Below, in pieces: positions 1 through 40,813 of a stretch of DNA of 42,791 bases. A program made the position numbers and the translations under genes. The notes beneath the pieces are model-generated. The model saw only the letters and a program-made list of their open reading frames with translations, had not been told where the DNA came from and searched no databases. Source of the DNA: a virus (Duplodnaviria; Heunggongvirae; Uroviricota; Caudoviricetes); IMG/VR virus record IMGVR_UViG_2537562189_000008, positions 1 to 42,791 of that record; one strand, written 5' to 3'. Position 1 is the first letter of the stretch, and each line of letters begins with the position of its first letter.

Positions 1-1158
1 ATGCTCACCGTTAAGCAGATTGAAGCAGCAAAGCCGAAAGAAAAACCATACCGCCTACTCGATGGTAATGGCCTGTACCTTTATGTCCCTGTATCAGGGA
101 AAAAGGTATGGCAGCTTCGCTACAAGATTGACGGTAAGGAGAAAATCCTGACTGTCGGAAAATATCCGCTTATGACTTTGCAGGAAGCAAGGGATAAGGC
201 ATGGACTGCGAGGAAAGACATCTCGGTTGGCATCGATCCGGTAAAGGCGAAAAAGGCTTCGTCTAACAACAATTCATTTAGTGCGATTTACAAGGAATGG
301 TACGAGCACAAGAAGCAAGTCTGGTCAGTAGGCTATGCAACTGAACTTGCCAAAATGTTTGATGACGACATTTTACCCATCATCGGCGGTCTTGAGATTC
401 AGGATATTGAGCCGATGCAACTGCTGGAAGTAATCCGCAGATTTGAAGATCGCGGTGCAATGGAGCGAGCCAACAAAGCCCGCAGAAGATGCGGCGAGGT
501 TTTTCGTTACGCTATTGTCACCGGAAGGGCTAAATATAACCCGGCACCTGACCTTGCAGACGCCATGAAAGGATACCGCAAGAAGAACTTCCCGTTCCTT
601 CCAGCAGACCAGATGCCTGCATTCAACAAAGCACTGGCAACATTTTCAGGAAGTATCGTATCGCTCATTGCGACAAAAGTTTTACGTTATACAGCCCTAA
701 GAACGAAAGAGCTTCGTTCCATGCTATGGAAGAACGTCGATTTTGAAAACAGGATTATCACCATCGACGCCAGTGTGATGAAGGGACGCAAAATTCATGT
801 GGTCCCGATGTCAGACCAGGTGGTTGAACTTCTCACTACGCTAAGCTCAATCACCAAACCAGTCTCAGAGTTTGTTTTTGCCGGGCGCAACGATAAGAAG
901 AAGCCAATCTGCGAGAACGCGGTATTGCTTGTGATCAAACAAATCGGCTATGAAGGTCTGGAAAGCGGTCACGGATTCAGGCATGAATTCAGCACGATTA
1001 TGAACGAGCACGAATGGCCTGCTGACGCTATTGAAGTGCAGCTGGCACATGCCAACGGTGGATCTGTGCGCGGTATTTACAACCATGCTCAGTATCTCGA
1101 TAAGCGCAGAGAAATGATGCAGTGGTGGGCGGATTGGCTTGATGAAAAGGAGGGGTAG
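1..1158 (+). CDS. int: Tyrosine integrase, P4/IntS-type with N-terminal arm-binding (DUF4102-like) region
   Basis: 385-aa ORF; N-terminus LTVKQIEAAKPKEKPYRLLDGNGLYL typical of P4-family integrases; C-terminal catalytic region with R..H..R..Y-type motifs (HGFRHEF, YNHAQY). Confidence 0.9.
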   Translation: MLTVKQIEAAKPKEKPYRLLDGNGLYLYVPVSGKKVWQLRYKIDGKEKILTVGKYPLMTLQEARDKAWTARKDISVGIDPVKAKKASSNNNSFSAIYKEWYEHKKQVWSVGYATELAKMFDDDILPIIGGLEIQDIEPMQLLEVIRRFEDRGAMERANKARRRCGEVFRYAIVTGRAKYNPAPDLADAMKGYRKKNFPFLPADQMPAFNKALATFSGSIVSLIATKVLRYTALRTKELRSMLWKNVDFENRIITIDASVMKGRKIHVVPMSDQVVELLTTLSSITKPVSEFVFAGRNDKKKPICENAVLLVIKQIGYEGLESGHGFRHEFSTIMNEHEWPADAIEVQLAHANGGSVRGIYNHAQYLDKRREMMQWWADWLDEKEG

Positions 1159-1248
1159 TGCCACCTACATCACTGCATGCATACACAGTAGTCTTAAGGC
1201 GCATTCAGATCAACTGTCATTTACTATGATTAACCTTAATCTTGCAAA

Positions 1249-1854
1249 ATGTTGAGGTTTTTCTTAATCTTTACACCTATTCACATTTCTGGCGAGCATA
1301 GAATGATAAGCAGCAAGGAAGATTACAAGTCATACCTTCTCCTTGACGAAAAGGCTATGAGGCTTCAGGGGTCAAGGTTAAAAAATATAATATTCAACGA
1401 TATATGGAGATTCCTTAGATTGCTAAGGAGGTTGGAGTATCTTACTAATTGCAAAGGAAATAAAGTTTTAATTCTGATTACAAGACTTAGGTTACGCAAA
1501 ATTCAAATGAAACTTGGATTTTCAATACCTATCAATACCTTTGGTCCAGGGTTATCAATACCACATTATGGTAACATAGTTGTTAACGCAGGAGCCAGGA
1601 TAGGTGCAAATTGCCGAATTCATGTAGGTACGAATATTGGCACATCAGCTGGAGCAGGACTTGAATCCCCTGTAATTGGTGATAATTGCTACATTGGTCC
1701 TGGAGCAAAAATTTACGGAAAGATAGTTATAGGTGACAATTGTGCAATAGGCGCGAATGCAGTCGTTAACAAAGATTTTAAAGATGGAAATTGCACTATT
1801 GCTGGCGTCCCTGCCAAGATAACATCATATAAAACATCAAAAGGTTATATATAA
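1249..1854 (+). CDS. Hexapeptide-repeat (left-handed beta-helix) O-acetyltransferase, serine-acetyltransferase/WcaB-like; start uncertain (alternative ATG at 1300)
   Basis: Repeated [LIV]-G-x-x-x-x hexapeptides (NAGARIGANCRIHVGTNIG, IGDNCYIGPGAKIYGKIVIGDNCAIGANAVV); strongly AT-rich relative to flanking phage genes; no clear Shine-Dalgarno at either start. Confidence 0.6.
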   Translation: MLRFFLIFTPIHISGEHRMISSKEDYKSYLLLDEKAMRLQGSRLKNIIFNDIWRFLRLLRRLEYLTNCKGNKVLILITRLRLRKIQMKLGFSIPINTFGPGLSIPHYGNIVVNAGARIGANCRIHVGTNIGTSAGAGLESPVIGDNCYIGPGAKIYGKIVIGDNCAIGANAVVNKDFKDGNCTIAGVPAKITSYKTSKGYI

Positions 1855-3924
1855 TTATTGATAGAAAACAGTTTTCAGTCCTGTGTTAGTCCCAACAGAG
1901 GTAATCCCTCTGTAAAGGCCGACATTACTGTTGGTTGTGCTATCAACCCTAACGATTCCATCAATGTTATTTATAAGTGAATTTGTGGTTTGTACAGCGT
2001 TGACAGCATAAGATTTACTTTGTGCTGATATATTTGATGCAACTAAAGTACCAGTTGTCATTGATACACCAACGCTTGACGAACCACTCTCAAAAACTGA
2101 ATTTTTAACAATAGCTTTTGCAACCCCACCAGAAATGTTTATATCTGCTCCGTTAAATGCCTGACTGATTCTCTTGACGTCTGACACGCTGATCAGAGAT
2201 ATACTTCCACCTGATAATATATCAAAGAAGAATGAAGACCTTGTGGGATTTGAACTTGATACTGAAATATCACTTAAGTAAACATTACCAATATTAAATC
2301 CGTATCTGATTTCTAACAAAATCGCCCCGTCATAACCTTGCCCATATATGCCATTAATATTTACATACGGTGTTGTGTTATTAACTGCCCGAATTGCGAC
2401 TATGTATCTTGATCCTTCAGAGTGAATGTTATTCGCGTTTACCTGCCCGGAAGTTATCTGTAGACCTGCGCTTAGCTCATAGGTTGCTGTCGTCTTAAGA
2501 TAAACATCACTGATAGTATTGAACCCATCAGATGAATCAACACCATTGCCAATCCTTCCTCGCCCACTAACACCACGAACAACACAGGAACTACCATAAA
2601 CACTAACACAACTATACATAGGGTTAGTTGCTGAGGCGTCATCACAAACCGCAAATACATTTGTTACTGTAACATCATTGGCCTGAACTTTGACTGCTCG
2701 CTTAAGTGCATTGTAAGTATAAACGCCATCAACCTTTATTTTCTTCCCGCTGAGCATATTTGATGATGAGTTGTAAATCTGAATAACAACACCATCAGCA
2801 TCTTCCCAAGGGTTTAGCTTGTAAATCCTTACGTTACTTATAACTCCACTTGATACCTCATCATCATTTGATGGTACTGGATCAAGTGCCGTTCCTACAA
2901 GAATCCCTCGACATGGCCCAATTACATCACCCTGAATACCATTTCCAATGGTGGTAATATTATGTATTGATATGTTATCAACGACAAAATTCAATACAGA
3001 ATTTGCATCTATGAAAATACCATAAGTTAGTTGAGAACCATTACTATCAAAAACATCAACATTCTTAACTACTGGATTAACAGCCCCTGTTTTGATATGA
3101 ACAGGCCTTCTAATTGCCATCATATTGCAGTTAACTTTAATATTGTTAAGCATGCATGAGTTTACTGTTATAAATGATCCTTCATCTCCGATAGCAACAA
3201 TTTCACCATTAATCAAATCTTTCGTAATATTGATGGTGCTGGCTTTAACTGTAGTTCCGTTAAGGTCCACATTCAATCCGTGCGCCATAATAGATTCAAT
3301 TGAATATTTCGCATCAGCACTCGTATCGATATACTGAGATGGCCAAACCAGTGTGTTATGAGGTGAAGAGTATTTATAAGATAGGCCATTCCTTGTTAAA
3401 TATAACTGTGATGCTGATACCGAAAACCCATCGGCAAGACCTGTAATTCCCGGAGCATATTCGTAAATCTCACCTGAGGATGTGGTGATTTTAAAACCAA
3501 CATTTGGATCTGAATCCATGGCACCATGTAATGCCCCATTTACTAAATTAACCCCACCAACACCATCTAACTCCTGTCTTAGTTGGTCAGGGTCATACTT
3601 CAGCACATTAGGAAAATAGAACTGCTGCGCACCATACGCATCATATACAGCCATAGAATGGCCTTGCACAGTTACGAACTTGGCAATCTGCCCGTTATAT
3701 ACCGGGTAACCAGCAGCGTTAATGATGATTGGTTGCGAAACAGGAATGTGAGAACCGTCTTCGTTTTCCACATAAACCTGAATCTGGTTTTCAGGATTTA
3801 CCGGATCAGTGTCAATTTTACCGATATAAATTTTGCCATTGGCAACCGCTTTAAAAGAACGCGCCATAGTGAAGAGTTGAGAAGGCATGCTCACTACAAC
3901 ATTGGCATTTATTGAATCTGTCAT
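1855..3924 (-). CDS. Tailspike protein with P22-type N-terminal head-binding domain and a divergent beta-helix receptor-binding domain
   Basis: 689-aa ORF; N-terminus [12 protein letters not shown]...[38 protein letters not shown] matches P22 gp9 head-binding domain from memory; remainder is Ser/Thr/Asn/Gly/Val-rich as in beta-helix tailspikes; AT-rich C-terminal portion. Confidence 0.9.
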
Positions 3925-3981
3925 TTAATTTGCTCCAGATACAAGGAATCACCGAAGCATGGCTACGATGAATTTTGGGCA

Positions 3982-4008
3982 TAAAAAAACCCAGCCGAAG
4001 CTGGGTTG
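3982..4008 (-). terminator. Rho-independent terminator between ant and the tailspike gene
   Basis: Minus-strand hairpin AACCCAGC-TTCG-GCTGGGTT followed by a T-run (plus-strand aaaaaaacccagccgaagctgggtt). Confidence 0.7.
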
Positions 4009-4024
4009 TCGCGTTGGTTATCTG

Positions 4025-4903
4025 TCAGTAGTTATGTACTGAAGGAGGTAATTCTTTATTCTTAAGTCTCATCCATGCGGAAAGATTCGTTGGTCCGTCT
4101 GGCTCATTGATATCAACATCTCGTGTGTGATTGATTAAAACGTCTCTCGCCATTCCGATAACATACGAGAATTCATGACCGTAGTCGTAGCATCTGCCGG
4201 AATAGTTCGATTGAATTTGTTTTAATGCCGGATACAGTTCGCAGAATAATGCCTGTGAACGGTTAGCATAATCCCATAGCCATACAAGGCTGTTTGCTTC
4301 TTTTGCAGAAAGCTCGTTTGCTTTCTTCTCTTGTTTGCCGATAAACTCGCCTTCAAGCACTACCCTGTGGATGTACTCTACGGCCAGCGGGATTTGTTCA
4401 ATTGAAAGTTCATCAATGCTGTCAATACCAAAACGCTGATGAACCATATTGTATGCATCGTCATAGCGAAGTCCTTTCTTTCCTACCAGCATGTTTACTG
4501 CATCGCGTAGCGCCGTTCTTTCCTCAACAGTGGTTTTCTTGCCTTTCACATACTCGCCATGTTTGCGAATTGAAGGTAGAACTTCTGCTGTTACCCACTT
4601 GCGGAATTTGTGCGGGACCGAACCTTTATTGACAGCATCGCGGCAGCGCAGAACCAATGTATACATACCTGATTCGCTAACAATGCTTAGATTCTGCTCA
4701 CCACCAAGGGTGTAACTTAAAGTTACTCCCTTTTCATCGTCATCAAGTGCAGTAAGCGCCTTGCGTGAGTTAGTCAGGGTTAAAGCATCACAAACATCTT
4801 TTGCTACAAACCACGGCTCACCGCATTTGTTGATGACGCGGATTTCACTGTCGCCGAATTTGAAGATGGTGAAATCGTTTTGTGCCTTTGCTATACTTTT
4901 CAT
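4025..4903 (-). CDS. ant: Antirepressor Ant (Bro-N domain N-terminus); ORF extends to 4969 but start at 4903 has a good Shine-Dalgarno
   Basis: Position downstream of arc as in P22 immI; N-terminal Bro-N-like region ([28 protein letters not shown]); AGGAAA 7 nt upstream of the ATG at 4903. Confidence 0.85.
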
Positions 4904-6459: not shown

Positions 6460-6615
6460 AATGCAAGCACCTTTGTTGTGATTTATGCTTGCATTATATA
6501 CACTGTGCACACATACAAGCAAGCATAAAACTAAAACAAAATGCTTGCATTACAACCGCGCTACTCCAACTACACATTATCATCTGGTATCCTGCTCAAA
6601 ACTAAGGAGGTTGGT

Positions 6616-7005
6616 GTGAAGCAATTTCTTGCTGCTATGTTCTTATTCATATCTTTTGGGGCTACAGCAGAGTGCTGGGTCGTTGGAGATATGCGCGGAA
6701 TAAGCTATTCAGAACGAAATAATTTCCATCCGGAAGAAGATGGTTTTAGTGGAACATTCATCATTAAGACAAGCGGTGAAGATGCCAGCATCACATATTC
6801 TGGGACAGATGCGGGCGGCATGGCTTACAAAGCATTGTCTAAAAACTCCATCATAGGAATCGGCGCGAATGGCGAAACTCAACGCGTTATCGACTCATGG
6901 GTAATACATCCTACTGGAACAGTTTTAATGTCAAAAACCATTTCCGGTTATGGAAATATGGATTCAACCAAAGCTTTTGTTGGAAAAGTAAAAAGAAAAT
7001 GTTAG
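6616..7005 (+). CDS. Small secreted/periplasmic protein of unknown function (GTG start; signal peptide)
   Basis: AAGGAGG 6 nt upstream of GTG at 6616; product begins VKQFLAAMFLFISFGATAE (hydrophobic signal peptide, A-x-A-like cleavage site, no lipobox); ORF track lists the longer ATG-initiated frame 6541..7005. Confidence 0.55.
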   Translation: MKQFLAAMFLFISFGATAECWVVGDMRGISYSERNNFHPEEDGFSGTFIIKTSGEDASITYSGTDAGGMAYKALSKNSIIGIGANGETQRVIDSWVIHPTGTVLMSKTISGYGNMDSTKAFVGKVKRKC

Positions 7006-27103: not shown

Positions 27104-27276
27104 TTCCTCGCACGATGTCTTAGCCACCGGATATCCCACAGGTGAGCCGTGTAGTTGAAGGTTTTTACGTCAGATTCTTTTGGGATTGGCTTGCGTTTAT
27201 TTCTGGAGCGTTTCGTTGGAAGGTATTTGCAGTTTTCGCAGATGATGTCGGTGATACTTCGTCGCTGTCGTCTCAT
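27100..27276 (-). CDS. ninE: NinE-like protein (58 aa; below ORF-track size cut-off)
   Basis: Own translation [58 protein letters not shown] matches recalled lambda NinE; start overlaps upstream stop (ATGA). Confidence 0.7.
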
Positions 27277-28118
27277 GCCGCATCCTCAAAATTAAATCCA
27301 AGCTGACATGAAAATGCTTCACATGATTCAGAACACGAACCTGAATCATACTGTCGCATTGATGTCATTCTTGAGGCTAACTCATCTCTTGATATATCAC
27401 TAAACAAGGCAATCAGTGATTTAAGTGTATTATTCCCTCGATACATAACCGGTTCCTTTCCTGTTTTTATTTCTGTATCAAGGATGTTGATAAATGCATC
27501 TGCAAGTTCTGGCTCATCCATGGCTGCCAGCGCAACCTTTTGCATACTTTTTTTTATACAGAAAACACAATTACCAAGATGCTCCTGTATGCCAAGATCA
27601 AACTTCTGCCCACTCCACCAATCAAGCACATCCTGTTTTTCAAAATCGCTTATATCAGCCAGGTACCGAAAACCATTAGCCCTTTTAAGCCTGTTTGGTT
27701 CATCTGTGCGAATGCCAAGCCATGTGATGTAATTTCCTTTCCCAAACTTTTCCTGACAATATTTGGTGAATGGAACAGACTTCATTCTGTCGGTACAGAA
27801 CGCACCGCCGATATATGGATGTCCGTATTTATTCAACATCCTTTTCCACGGTATAAGATCTGGACCAATATCAGTGACACCTATCTCTTCATAACTACTG
27901 GCCTTCCCCATTTCTGGATTAGGTATTACACGAAGGCAATGTAAGTCTATTTTCCAGTTACTGACGATATTTCGGATGAACTCATATGTTTTAGGGTGCT
28001 CTGCCCCTGTATCCATGAAAACGTAATGCACGTCTTCACCAGCCTGTCGCTTTTGCTCCATTAGCCAGAGCAAATATGCTGACGTCCTGCCACCGGAGAA
28101 ACTAACGACATTTATCAT
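27273..28118 (-). CDS. NinC-like PAPS-reductase-family (PP-loop ATP pyrophosphatase fold) protein
   Basis: PP-loop motif [14 protein letters not shown] near the N-terminus when started at the ATG overlapping ninB stop; ORF track frame extends to 28178. Confidence 0.7.
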
Positions 28119-28555
28119 GCAGCCTTGTCTCCCCATCTTGCTTTCCACTCCAGAGCCAGTCGCGCTTCGTCTGACCACTTAACGCCACGCTCTGTACCGA
28201 ATGCCTGTATAAGCTCTAATAGCTCCGCAAATTCGCTTACACGCATCCTGCTGGTTGACTGGCCTATTACCACAAAGCCATTCCCGGCAAGGTTAGGAAC
28301 AACATCCTGCTGCTTTAATGCTGCGGTAAACACACACTTCCAGCTTTCTGCATCCAGCCAGCGACCATGCCATTCAACCTGACGAGAGACGTCACCAAGG
28401 CAAGCCCAAAGCTTCCTGTTTTGGTCTAAGCTGCGGTTGCGTTCCTGAATGGTTACTACGATTGGTTTGGTTGGGTCTGGAAGGATTTGCTGTACCGCGT
28501 GAATAGCGTTTTGCTGATGTGCTGGAGATCGAATTTCAAAGGTTAGTTTTTTCAT
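28115..28555 (-). CDS. ninB: NinB (Orf-family recombination mediator)
   Basis: 146-aa product MKKLTFEIRSPAHQQNAIHAVQQILPDPTKPIVVTIQERNRSLDQNRKLWACLGDV... matches lambda NinB from memory. Confidence 0.88.
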   Translation of the reverse strand: MKKLTFEIRSPAHQQNAIHAVQQILPDPTKPIVVTIQERNRSLDQNRKLWACLGDVSRQVEWHGRWLDAESWKCVFTAALKQQDVVPNLAGNGFVVIGQSTSRMRVSEFAELLELIQAFGTERGVKWSDEARLALEWKARWGDKAA

Positions 28556-28631: not shown

Positions 28632-31112
28632 TCAGAATCCTCCTTTCTTCTTGGACTGCGGTTCCTCGCGTTCACGTCGGCGCATTTCAGCAGACTGTTG
28701 GTCTGTGTCATAAATAGCGCCATTTGCCTGAATGCAATACACCGTGCCGGTATTGCCATGACGATTGAGACGAAGGATTAGTTCGGTTTCACCAGGTGGA
28801 ACACTGTCATCAAAAGCGCCTTCACGATGGATCCCAACCCAATAATCGCAATCCTGTTCAATCTGCCCTGTATCTCGTGAGTCACTTGGTAATGGGCGTT
28901 TATTGGTTCGGCTTTCCAGTGCGCGGTTAAGCTGTGTCAGAAGCACAACAACGCAATCAAGCTCTTTGGCAAGGTTCTTCAGTCCTTTGGTGATCATGCC
29001 GTAAGCAAGGTCGTTGCGATCGGCCTTCTCAGCGGTCATTAGTGTCAGGTAATCGACCAGAATCATGCCAACACATCCTTTTTCTCGCTTGATTCGACGG
29101 CTTTCGCTGACGATTTGAGCCAGAGATAATCCCGGCGTGTCGTCGATGTAAAGCATGTCGATTTCACTCAAGCGATTAGCTGTTTCGATCGCCCTGTTGA
29201 AGTCACCATCGTAATCACCCTGATAGCCGTCATCAGCGTCATTTGTCGCCGGAAGGTAAAAAATATTCGGGTTAACACCAGACTTCTGCCCTACCAGTTT
29301 TTCCAGTATCTGGTCACCTGGCATTTCAAGGCTGAACATCAGAGCGGGCTTTTTCTCATGCACTGCGCAGTTGATTGCCATCTGGCTGTATAGCGTGGTG
29401 TTGTGGGTTAGAATGTATCCGTCAGTTGCATACAAATGTCTCTCGTGGGATACCATGATGCAAATGCACTCTTCACGTCCAATATACTCAACCGACGTGA
29501 TAACAGGCGCACTTGTTTTGATGCGTTTTGCAGTGAATTTTTGCTTCAGGCGTGGAGATTTTATGTGTGATAGAACCTCATCAGGCAACCTGATTGCGCA
29601 AATATGGGCATCCATACCTTTGCGCATTTCTCCCTTATAACTGAATTTCGGCTCCTGTTTGGTTGTCATACGACACACGCCACCAAGAGAATGCACCAGC
29701 CGCTTTACACCATCTGACAGGAACTTGCTTGCCGAGCTAAAGCGCAGGGCATTATTTCCTTCAACCCAACCATCGGTTTCAAGTAATCCGCATAGAACAT
29801 CAATACGAGTTTGCTTATCAGCAGAAAAAATAATATCCGGGATAATTTTAATCTCTGACATCCGGCCGTAGATACCAAGCCGTTGCATAACCCGCGTAAG
29901 AGATAATTTGCGGCTAAACTTGTGAGATAGGGAGTAATCGCAGCCAGAAACATGCCTGACTTCAATATCGTCACCCACTTCAGATCTTACTCGCTCAATG
30001 ATGTATGGTTCCGTCATGCTGATTCGTGGCGTACCTGCAAGATTTCCATCGCCAAGTAACGCACCTAACAGCCATGGGCTAATCCCTAAATCAACAGGCA
30101 ATCCGAAGTCACCGCTAATACCAGGAACATGAATGCGGCTTTGATAGCGAACGCATTCCATCATGTCCCGTAGGCGGCAGGTGTCTACAACATCAACGCC
30201 ACCGGTAATACGGTTACTATGAATTTCCCACAAATGATCATCCGCGCAATCAACGGTTCTTCCGTCAGAGAACGTAACTCGGTAAATATCTCGCTCCCCT
30301 TGAGGAAAAACTCCAGACACGAATGATGGTTGTCCATCCACTGATGCTAGGGAATCTCCAACACATACGTCACGAAATGTTGTCCATGAACCATCAGCAA
30401 GCAAAATGCGTGAATTAAGCGGTTGCGCTTTCCCCATCTTAGGGCGAGCGCCAATGACAAACAGAGAGCCTTTCACCAGACCTTTCGGTGACAGCATCCT
30501 GTCCAGCGATGGGATCCCTGTGCTCATTCCTCGTTGTTCGCCTGACGGGTCAAATCGCTTCTCAAGGTCGCTAACCCAGTCTTCCATGACCTCACCAAAT
30601 GAGCGAAGGCCGCGACGCGATCCGGTTTTTGCATGGTCTGTCAGTTGCGTGAAAATCGACTGAATAGCTTCGTACTTCTGCGTTGCAGTCATTCCGTTGC
30701 GGGAATAGAGCAATTCCGTCGCTTCAGTCATGCGGTTGATGGCGTAGCGTTCCATTGCGGTTTCGCGAACCTGCATTGCATAAGCAACGATGTTTGCTGC
30801 GCTTGGCGTGTTCTTTGCGATCTCAGCGATATAAGCAAAACCGCCAACAGACACCGTTAACGATTTGCGCTCCAGTTCATCGAAAAGCGTCAGGCCATCT
30901 ACTGGCTTTTGCTCCCGGTGCATTCTGGTTATTTCTTCGAAAAGGATTTTGTGTGGTCGGCTGTAAAATGAATCAGGCTTCAGCATCGCCAGAACTTTCT
31001 GGACGCGCTCACTGCTGTCATCATCCAGAAGCAATCCACCAATCACCGCCTGCTCTGCCTCGATGCTATGGGGCGGCGCATAAAAATTATCGGTCATCGT
31101 GTTCACCCTCAC
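28632..31112 (-). CDS. Replicative DNA helicase (DnaB family, P22 gene 12-like) interrupted by an intein
   Basis: 826-aa ORF; DnaB N-terminal domain (YAPPHSIEAEQAVIGGLLLDDD); Walker A GARPKMGK split from its Thr and the downstream DnaB motifs (TLYSQMAINCA...MFSLEM) by a 343-aa insertion bearing Hint and LAGLIDADG motifs. Confidence 0.88.
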   Translation of the reverse strand: MRVNTMTDNFYAPPHSIEAEQAVIGGLLLDDDSSERVQKVLAMLKPDSFYSRPHKILFEEITRMHREQKPVDGLTLFDELERKSLTVSVGGFAYIAEIAKNTPSAANIVAYAMQVRETAMERYAINRMTEATELLYSRNGMTATQKYEAIQSIFTQLTDHAKTGSRRGLRSFGEVMEDWVSDLEKRFDPSGEQRGMSTGIPSLDRMLSPKGLVKGSLFVIGARPKMGKAQPLNSRILLADGSWTTFRDVCVGDSLASVDGQPSFVSGVFPQGERDIYRVTFSDGRTVDCADDHLWEIHSNRITGGVDVVDTCRLRDMMECVRYQSRIHVPGISGDFGLPVDLGISPWLLGALLGDGNLAGTPRISMTEPYIIERVRSEVGDDIEVRHVSGCDYSLSHKFSRKLSLTRVMQRLGIYGRMSEIKIIPDIIFSADKQTRIDVLCGLLETDGWVEGNNALRFSSASKFLSDGVKRLVHSLGGVCRMTTKQEPKFSYKGEMRKGMDAHICAIRLPDEVLSHIKSPRLKQKFTAKRIKTSAPVITSVEYIGREECICIMVSHERHLYATDGYILTHNTTLYSQMAINCAVHEKKPALMFSLEMPGDQILEKLVGQKSGVNPNIFYLPATNDADDGYQGDYDGDFNRAIETANRLSEIDMLYIDDTPGLSLAQIVSESRRIKREKGCVGMILVDYLTLMTAEKADRNDLAYGMITKGLKNLAKELDCVVVLLTQLNRALESRTNKRPLPSDSRDTGQIEQDCDYWVGIHREGAFDDSVPPGETELILRLNRHGNTGTVYCIQANGAIYDTDQQSAEMRRREREEPQSKKKGGF
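29400..30428 (-). other. Intein (Hint splicing domain plus LAGLIDADG homing endonuclease) inserted in the helicase P-loop; Ala at position 1 with Trp, Cys and Thr at the positions expected for a class-3-type intein
   Basis: Residues A229..N571 of the helicase ORF: block A-like ILLADGSW...CVGDSLASVDG, block B-like GRTVDCADDHLW, LAGLIDADG motifs LLGALLGDGNL and LCGLLETDGWVEG, C-terminal ...CICIMV...YILTHN followed by Thr as +1 extein residue restoring GK-T. Confidence 0.75.
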
Positions 31113-40770: not shown

Positions 40771-40813
40771 TGCCTGATTTGCAGGTTCGATTCCCTATTC
40801 GGAGATAGCACTC

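Follow-up and report, generated by a model that had tools for sequence, protein, structure and literature searches.

The window analyzed here is the whole 42,791-nucleotide stretch of IMG/VR record IMGVR_UViG_2537562189_000008, a complete P22-like (Lederbergvirus) prophage of Escherichia coli of the CUS-3/Kapi1 type, inserted at argW. Next to the integrase gene int, an AT-rich block (positions 1159-3556) encodes a hexapeptide-repeat acetyltransferase and, convergent with it, the receptor-binding body of the tailspike. We favor, with moderate confidence, the reading that this block is an imported receptor module in which an O76-specific tailspike is paired with a cytoplasmic O-acetyltransferase that would mask the receptor in lysogens. 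Open reading frame (ORF) calls and RefSeq annotation give the gene order argW, int, acetyltransferase, tailspike. A modification gene thus lies between int/att and the tailspike gene of a temperate phage, which is the layout of a seroconversion module. The module most likely belongs to a known class that includes CUS-3 neuO, BTP1 gtrC, Sf6 oac, and P22 gtr. An earlier note on this DNA had called the cassette novel; the description holds for the parts but not for the principle, which is familiar from CUS-3, BTP1, Sf6, and P22. What is new is a tailspike body and an enzyme family so far uncharacterized in phages, together with a comparison that clearly shows recognition and modification genes moving as one unit.

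Anatomy of the tailspike and acetyltransferase genes

The module and the domain to which it is joined comprise the following features.

1159..1302, plus strand: AT-rich upstream region of the acetyltransferase gene, part of the conserved E. coli cassette (GC content 0.375; 1.4% variable columns versus 6.7% in int)
1303..1854, plus strand: left-handed beta-helix (LbH, hexapeptide) O-acetyltransferase of the CysE/WcaB/EpsC-like branch, 183 amino acids, identical to WP_000625801.1
1852..1857, no strand: stop-to-stop junction TAA/TTA of the convergent genes, with no intergenic base
1855..3556, minus strand: tailspike residues ~123-689, the imported receptor-binding body, a right-handed beta-helix and presumed O76 O-antigen depolymerase
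3557..3924, minus strand: P22-type head-binding (particle-attachment) domain of the tailspike (PF09008), derived from the backbone

The earlier note had described two convergent genes within 1249-3924 whose stop codons abut. Both ORFs, 1249..1854 (plus strand) and 1855..3924 (minus strand), are present, and zero bases separate the TAA at 1852-1854 from the TTA (reverse complement of TAA) at 1855-1857, so that the junction reads ...TATATA TAA/TTA TTGATA.... Only the start of the acetyltransferase gene requires revision: it is almost certainly the ATG at 1303 rather than 1249, giving a protein of 183 amino acids, because RefSeq starts WP_000625801.1 there, homologues are all 183 amino acids from that point, and DNA homology among cassettes begins at 1302. 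No terminator separates the two genes, and transcription of either one would therefore continue antisense into its neighbor; any relevance of this is speculative. Across 1000-4200, the only tandem repeats were two trivial two-copy arrays, with no phase-variation tract like that of neuO.

Both genes are AT-rich, as had been noted: the acetyltransferase gene has a GC content of 0.370 and the tailspike body one of 0.380, against 0.475 for the rest of the prophage. Elsewhere in this region, the value is 0.478 for int and 0.429 for the tailspike N-terminus. The borders of the block emerge from comparison with CUS-3, which is homologous over window positions 1-1150 (97% identity, covering int) and 3566-4357 (92.6%, covering the tailspike head-binding region and the sequence upstream) but not between; its neuO and endosialidase body occupy the gap from 1150 to 3566. 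Among 5,426 complete E. coli genomes, the flanks are common to 1,972 and the insert to only 3. The slot itself is one that has been filled in other ways. As had been claimed for the KplE1 prophage, K-12 CPS-53 carries intS followed by the gtr genes yfdG/H/I on the same strand and in the same position. In the upstream region 1159..1302, similarity to K-12 and CUS-3 stops near 1195, and the region could not be aligned to the upstream regions of the related loci L003, L007, L009, and L004 described below. Comparison with K-12, CUS-3, and the other cassettes revealed no shared promoter or regulatory element in front of the acetyltransferase gene; the promoter and ribosome-binding site are presumably within 1159..1302.

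The tailspike (689 amino acids, 1855-3924, minus strand) is chimeric. Its P22-type N-terminus, already recognized in the earlier note, matches Pfam Head_binding (PF09008) over residues 4-114 with 217 bits against a cutoff of 24, and retrieves the Sf6 and P22 tailspike N-termini from the PDB at E = 1e-63 to 1e-45, with E = 3e-63 for residues 1-118 of Sf6 gp14. For the remaining ~570 residues, Pfam returned no family. A beta-helix had been proposed for this body, and structure prediction from an alignment gave a confident right-handed beta-helix with a predicted local distance difference test (pLDDT) score of 90.1; a single-sequence AlphaFold2 model of the whole tailspike (pLDDT 43) was discarded. 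No sequence similarity between the body and the tailspikes of HK620, Sf6, P22, or Kapi1 could be detected, and the sole relative of the body above 30% identity among 50,697 phage records is one tailspike of the Shigella boydii Agtrevirus Gloob (50.7%). The family is small, with 22 clusters in 5.8 billion proteins; a set of 1.84 billion yielded 35 representatives at E < 1e-3, of which 11 reach E < 1e-30. The N-terminal adaptors to which its members are joined are of at least four kinds (PF09008, PF03906, PF18668, and none recognized). Searching with the receptor-binding-domain alignment retrieved nothing from GTDB species representatives or JGI metagenome contigs, and only four near-identical E. 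coli copies from IMG/VR.

The acetyltransferase combines a helical N-terminal region with an LbH domain at its C-terminus. The hexapeptide-repeat identity assigned previously is confirmed by Pfam Hexapep (PF00132; 46.8 bits versus a cutoff of 27), and 114 LbH enzymes in the PDB match the sequence at E < 0.01, the best being the LbH domains of serine acetyltransferases. The catalytic histidine of the "DH" motif in those enzymes aligns with H88, which, like H107, is invariant in the family. The protein also matches phrog_2154 (E = 1.7e-45), a group to which no function is assigned. Databases contain over 5,000 relatives from across the Proteobacteria at about 55-65% identity, in an unnamed family whose proteins have about 183-200 residues; among phage records there was no close relative, the best matching at 36-42% over the LbH half. 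Identity as a true CysE was rejected: the protein scored 63 bits against a cutoff of 210.65 for TIGR01172 and 45 against 397 for NF008349, and it has no SATase_N domain (PF06426), which is present in the genuine CysE encoded beside the homologue in L004. The NCBIfam equivalogs for EpsC (79.3 versus 150) and WcaB (38.7 versus 194.65) likewise fell below cutoff, and Acyl_transf_3 (PF01757) did not match. For the whole family of ~183-200 residues, the name "serine O-acetyltransferase" given by RefSeq is probably incorrect.

Distant CysE-like LbH genes, 33-42% identical over the LbH half and annotated as serine acetyltransferase, are also encountered in several phages (e.g., NC_031069.1 17362-17706, OR565852.1 1518-1769, and ON470591.1 505-822). 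Carriers include Streptococcus thermophilus 987-group phages and Citrobacter phage phiNP, and in one E. coli phage such a gene abuts a tail-fiber assembly gene.

Transfer between phage backbones and association with O76

The closest relatives of the acetyltransferase were traced to their contigs, and those of the tailspike body were traced independently. The resulting loci are listed here with amino acid identities to the window.

L003: podovirus prophage, 52-57% GC, T7-type terminase; acetyltransferase 86%, body 89%; convergent with zero spacer (3657/3658)
L007/L008: prophage of Enterobacter hormaechei GCA_019840865.1, T7 gp14-like internal proteins; acetyltransferase 94.5%, body 88%; convergent with zero spacer (10364/10365)
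L009: prophage of Proteus vulgaris, Tail_spike_N adaptor; acetyltransferase 75%, body 64%; convergent with a 4-nucleotide overlap

Window positions 1302-3556 form one colinear block with 87.9% DNA identity to L007, and the block recurs at 87-88% DNA identity in unrelated podovirus prophages, that of E. hormaechei and one other. The limits of the shared block are the acetyltransferase start codon (1302) and tailspike codon ~123, at the junction of head-binding domain and body (3556). In the L003 tail protein (780 amino acids), the last 572 residues are 89% identical and the first 208 unrelated. The far flank varies by backbone, being occupied by int in the window and L003 and by holin or lysis genes in both L007 and L009. 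The integrase cluster of L003 includes Enterobacter, Salmonella, and Cedecea. By this sequence comparison, acetyltransferase and body have been co-transferred as one block between unrelated backbones and host genera. The suggestion of a swapped recognition and modification cassette is therefore supported, the block being present in at least three other unrelated backbones, conserved beyond its flanks, and replaced in distant temperate relatives.

That replacement is seen in L010 and L011, where an unrelated acetyltransferase of the OafA/Oac type (Acyl_transf_3 with SGNH, PF01757) lies convergent to and 23-42 nucleotides downstream of the tailspike gene. L010 (body 61%, siphovirus GpJ context) and L011 (body 58%, L009 backbone, its acetyltransferase gene broken) are both temperate-looking. 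The shared position points to functional replacement by another acetyltransferase class. No acetyltransferase gene adjoins the tailspike gene in relatives at ~50% from lytic-looking genomes, namely L012 (a 127-kb contig with several tailspikes), L013 (with DNA polymerase A), L014 (N4/SU10-like), and the 158-kb Gloob; lytic or temperate status was assigned from the gene content of the contigs. A temperate-only pattern is a prediction of a lysogenic-conversion function, not of a virion or infection function.

Variation among the E. coli copies (n = 4: the window and three complete genomes) separates the cassette from its surroundings. Variable columns amount to 1.4% in 1159-1302, 0.5% in the acetyltransferase gene, and 0.7% in the body, compared with 6.7% in int and 9.8% in the head-binding domain, making the cassette about 10 times less variable than its flanks. 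The acetyltransferase protein (WP_000625801.1) is identical in the window and the three genomes, all of which are O76, whereas integrase alleles and immunity and ejection genes differ among the three carrier prophages. Because the cassette is uniform while flanks and backbones have diverged, we conclude that its insertion into diverged P22-like backbones, or its exchange between them, is recent. The prophage of strain K99B (L023; NZ_CM135133.1 3158526-3173423) is decayed and has been shortened by an inserted IS100, with a truncated DNA-transfer gene and adjoining bacteriophage exclusion (BREX) and helicase fragments; despite this decay, its acetyltransferase protein is identical and its tailspike intact. 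The ratio of nonsynonymous to synonymous substitution rates (dN/dS) lies at 0.07-0.13 in the acetyltransferase gene and at 0.11-0.13 in the tailspike body, values of about 0.1 that indicate maintenance of both genes by purifying selection. Synonymous divergence (dS) is discordant between lineages: 0.24 for the acetyltransferase and 0.57 for the body between the window and L007, as against 1.42 and 0.47 between the window and L003. Recombination has therefore also occurred inside the pair.

In complete E. coli genomes, the cassette is restricted to O76 hosts. Its carriers, 3 of the 5,426, are K99B, JNE132847, and KD602, and all three are among the five O76 genomes retrieved from the same set with the O76 wzx and wzy genes, to which theirs are 99.9-100% identical (hypergeometric p = 3.8e-10, clonality ignored). 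Given the divergent backbones of the carriers, a single inherited prophage is unlikely. JNE132847, whose O-antigen cluster carries O76 wzx and wzy, is a serologically typed Shiga toxin-producing E. coli (STEC) of serotype O76:H7 (PMC10790564). The earlier note had left the modification target as O-antigen or capsule; with three of three carriers being O76, the choice narrows to the O76 O-antigen, and a capsule or other O76-linked glycan retains some probability. As given in PMC10304059 (after Perepelov et al. 2013), the O76 O-antigen is a linear tetrasaccharide of two N-acetylgalactosamine (GalNAc) residues, one GalNAc3Ac (~70% acetylated), and one glucuronic acid (GlcA). Since O76 contains GlcA, a lyase mechanism for the tailspike body is chemically possible, which we offer solely as a lead.

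The nearest chromosomal homologue of the acetyltransferase (72%) stands last in a Wzx/Wzy polysaccharide cluster of Providencia (L004, 1-10552) and is 90% identical to the copy in the Proteus phage (L009). This cluster adjoins trmL-cysE-gpsA-secB, a neighborhood that we take to be the Providencia O-antigen locus. When compared with the E. coli O76 cluster (L017), it shares glycosyltransferases at 49% (full length) and 35%, wzy at 28%, two 4-epimerases at 51-55%, and ugd at 72%. These similarities suggest that the Providencia and O76 O-units are related GalNAc/GlcA repeats and that such a unit may be the native substrate of the acetyltransferase. The source of the cassette is probably Morganellaceae, as its GC content of 0.38 would fit. 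In the same Providencia cluster, an OafA-type acetyltransferase gene lies directly upstream of the LbH homologue. The O76 cluster of E. coli also has an acetyltransferase gene of its own; kinship of the phage enzyme with that resident protein was considered and rejected, as only the LbH repeats are alike.

The prophage backbone and its ends

Outside the imported block, the window is a conventional P22-like prophage. Between positions 4000 and 28000, ~62-64% of the sequence matches phages phiv205-1, Kapi1, and CUS-3 at 95-96% identity. Further features are listed below.

1..1158, plus strand: IntS-type tyrosine integrase (Pfam Phage_integrase, Phage_int_M, Arm-DNA-bind_3); the window begins at its ATG
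3988..4007, minus strand: terminator-like hairpin and T-run upstream of the tailspike gene; HK620 and epsilon34 have a terminator annotated at the equivalent place
40779..40794, plus strand: attR core TTGCAGGTTCGATTCC, 3' part of argW; exact 16-nucleotide match to the tRNA-Arg 3' region of L001
41544-42791: host cscB (LacY family permease; LacY_symp, 644 bits)

The int gene is the left backbone flank and lies outside the imported block; RefSeq names it intS in three genomes, where it adjoins tRNA-Arg (argW). The right prophage end is the attR core, with host DNA beyond; a 16-nucleotide attL core is annotated in CUS-3. In the O76 strain FORC_042, the argW site is empty and followed directly by the same csc genes, including that of the major facilitator superfamily permease, which makes this strain a natural prophage-free comparator.

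Three other genes of the window deserve mention. A DnaB-type replicative helicase (28632-31112, minus strand, 826 amino acids) has its DnaB N-terminal domain at residues 13-117, and DnaB_C follows only at 572-792. The intervening stretch of ~450 residues contains a weak LAGLIDADG_3 match (22.5 bits, at cutoff) and looks like an intein or homing-endonuclease insertion. A 154-amino acid ORF (6541-7005, plus strand) with a hydrophobic N-terminus (…FLFISFGATAEC…) and no Pfam match lies on the strand opposite to the surrounding late genes, between a P63C-domain gene and the DNA-ejection genes, and is possibly another moron expressed in lysogeny. JNE132847 and KD602 have a 486-bp hypothetical ORF between Arc-family and DNA-transfer genes that resembles it in size. 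Finally, the early/nin region encodes a 301-amino acid protein with a PAPS-reductase domain (27273-28178, minus strand; 34.6 bits).

Proposed function, precedents, and alternatives

Seroconversion genes near int and the tailspike gene are documented for Sf6, Sf101, P22, and BTP1 (PMC8787464, PMC4413052, PMC10408124). Receptor masking has been demonstrated by experiment for BTP1 GtrC (PMC4413052), the same logic has been proposed for P22 gtr, Sf6 Oac, Sf101 OacB, and Kapi1 (PMC8787464), and prophage acetyltransferases have been linked to K-type in Klebsiella (PMC13123978). A close parallel is CUS-3 of E. coli K1, another P22-like prophage at argW with a hexapeptide-family O-acetyltransferase gene between int and tailspike. 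It differs in that neuO shares the strand of the tailspike gene, while the pair in the window is convergent; in that neuO has a poly-psi heptanucleotide phase-variation tract, absent from the window; in its target, the K1 capsule rather than an O-antigen; and in its unrelated tailspike body. The enzymes themselves have only generic LbH repeats in common, the polysialic-acid O-acetyltransferase match being E = 3e-6 over 53 residues. BTP1 GtrC, Sf6 Oac, and Sf101 OacB are further close parallels; each is a prophage-encoded enzyme that O-acetylates the O-antigen of its own tailspike from a gene beside tailspike or int (PMC4413052, PMC8787464). This Acyl_transf_3 class is the one found in the same convergent position in L010 and L011. 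Its members are integral-membrane proteins (with or without SGNH) that act at the periplasmic face, whereas the window enzyme is a soluble LbH protein lacking PF01757 and must therefore act in the cytoplasm. P22 gtrABC and yfdGHI of K-12 CPS-53/KplE1 fill the same slot, following int directly on its strand and pointing toward the tail genes, and also modify O-antigen, but they do so by glucosylation through three membrane proteins with no sequence relationship to the window enzyme. WcaB, EpsC, and CysE-like enzymes, finally, share the N-terminal helical region, the C-terminal LbH domain, and the catalytic histidine, but the window enzyme scores far under the cutoff of every named equivalog.

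We propose that the tailspike docks through the resident P22-type head-binding domain, to which its distal 567 residues are joined in frame, and that these residues bind and probably cleave the O76 O-antigen of the host. The acetyl-CoA-dependent LbH O-acetyltransferase, expressed from the prophage, would O-acetylate the O-unit on the cytoplasmic face before export, with a nucleotide sugar or an undecaprenyl diphosphate-linked intermediate as acceptor; other soluble LbH polysaccharide acetyltransferases, such as WcaB/WcaF and NeuO, work in this way. The acetylated polymer would be a poor substrate for this tailspike family, and the expected outcomes are superinfection exclusion, sparing of released progeny from adsorption to debris, and seroconversion. 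The pair travels as a block between phage backbones and host genera. The sequences themselves show the anatomy, the chimerism, the co-transfer, the replacement by another acetyltransferase class, the purifying selection, and the restriction to O76 hosts; substrate, expression in the lysogen, and masking effect are the steps that we infer.

Several considerations weigh against this proposal. The discordant dS values mean that acetyltransferase and body have not had one shared history throughout. A simple sigma-70 scan found no usable promoter upstream of 1303, and with upstream regions unconserved between contexts, expression in the lysogen is an assumption. The link from the enzyme to O76 lipopolysaccharide is inferential rather than experimental, and the association with O76 is that of three typed complete genomes, a count to which the window does not contribute. 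A capsule or another O76-linked glycan may be the actual target. Any cytoplasmic modification must suit the later glycosyltransferases, Wzx, Wzy, and WaaL. The published O76 structure, as cited in PMC10304059, has a single partial O-acetyl group (GalNAc3Ac, ~70%). No extra phage-dependent acetyl group on O76 has been reported, and the O76 cluster encodes its own acetyltransferase of 189 amino acids. Finally, relatives of the phage enzyme at ~60% (L025, L026) sit as isolated genes outside polysaccharide loci.

Some of these observations fit an account in which the acetyltransferase is an unrelated moron acting on another substrate (a small molecule, an antibiotic, serine, colanic acid, enterobacterial common antigen, or capsule) and, lying directly 3' of the body, is dragged along passively when tailspike bodies are swapped. 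The RefSeq name and the CysE LbH domains among the best PDB matches accord with this, as do the discordant dS values and the orphan location of the ~60% homologues away from polysaccharide clusters. We nevertheless judge it unlikely. The protein fails the cysE equivalog (63 versus 210.65 bits) and lacks SATase_N. The far flank differs in each backbone (int, holin, lysozyme genes), leaving no shared homology that could drag the gene along, yet the block border falls exactly at its start codon. Strong purifying selection, an intact copy in a decayed prophage, an unrelated O-antigen acetyltransferase class in the same position in distant relatives, the absence of any such gene from lytic relatives, and a nearest chromosomal homologue within an O76-related O-antigen cluster all argue against it.

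Two further alternatives are, in our estimate, less probable still. Receptor and target could be another surface polysaccharide that covaries with O76, for instance a K antigen or an O-antigen capsule of group 4, much as the CUS-3 endosialidase and NeuO act on the K1 capsule. We think this quite improbable, as the carriers agree in O76 wzx/wzy (99.9-100%) while their prophage backbones differ in integrase alleles, immunity, and DNA-ejection genes, and the chromosomal homologue is part of the Providencia O-antigen locus, in a cluster of the Wzx/Wzy O-antigen type. In addition, the repeat unit of a group 4 capsule is that of the O-antigen, so the distinction is small. The other possibility, to which we likewise assign only a slight chance, is that the acetyltransferase creates the receptor, the tailspike requiring an acetylated glycan, or mainly serves the host through immune evasion or serum resistance, with no effect on adsorption. 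Its homologue is a resident O-antigen gene in Providencia, which implies that the acetylated form exists naturally, and seroconversion does alter immunogenicity (PMC8787464). Creation of the receptor would, however, raise wasteful adsorption in the lysogen; lytic relatives of the body need no linked acetyltransferase; and the characterized cases of this layout all reduce recognition (BTP1, PMC4413052).

A more ambitious version of the receptor-masking proposal joins three ideas, and we regard the conjunction as doubtful. The pair would be a free-standing recognize-and-mask unit kept by selection, hopping among P22-like phages, T7-gp14-type podoviruses, and Proteus prophages and from Morganellaceae to Enterobacteriaceae. 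The zero-spacer layout would itself be functional, with late tailspike transcription running antisense through the acetyltransferase gene and the reverse occurring in the lysogen, turning masking on in lysogeny and off during lytic growth. The tailspike would be a lyase that cuts O76-like O-units at GlcA, and acetylation by its partner enzyme would block it.

Across phage families, a tailspike body can be inherited together with its presumed disarming enzyme as one portable block. Such a block bears on the prediction of host range from receptor-binding proteins and on the inference of serotype from the O-antigen cluster alone. It also supplies two concrete candidates, one for a depolymerase specific to O76 and the other for an O76 serotype modifier carried by a phage, in a serogroup that includes STEC O76:H7 associated with hemolytic uremic syndrome. 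More broadly, the proteins annotated as "serine O-acetyltransferase" in this widespread unnamed family are, the analysis suggests, polysaccharide O-acetyltransferases.

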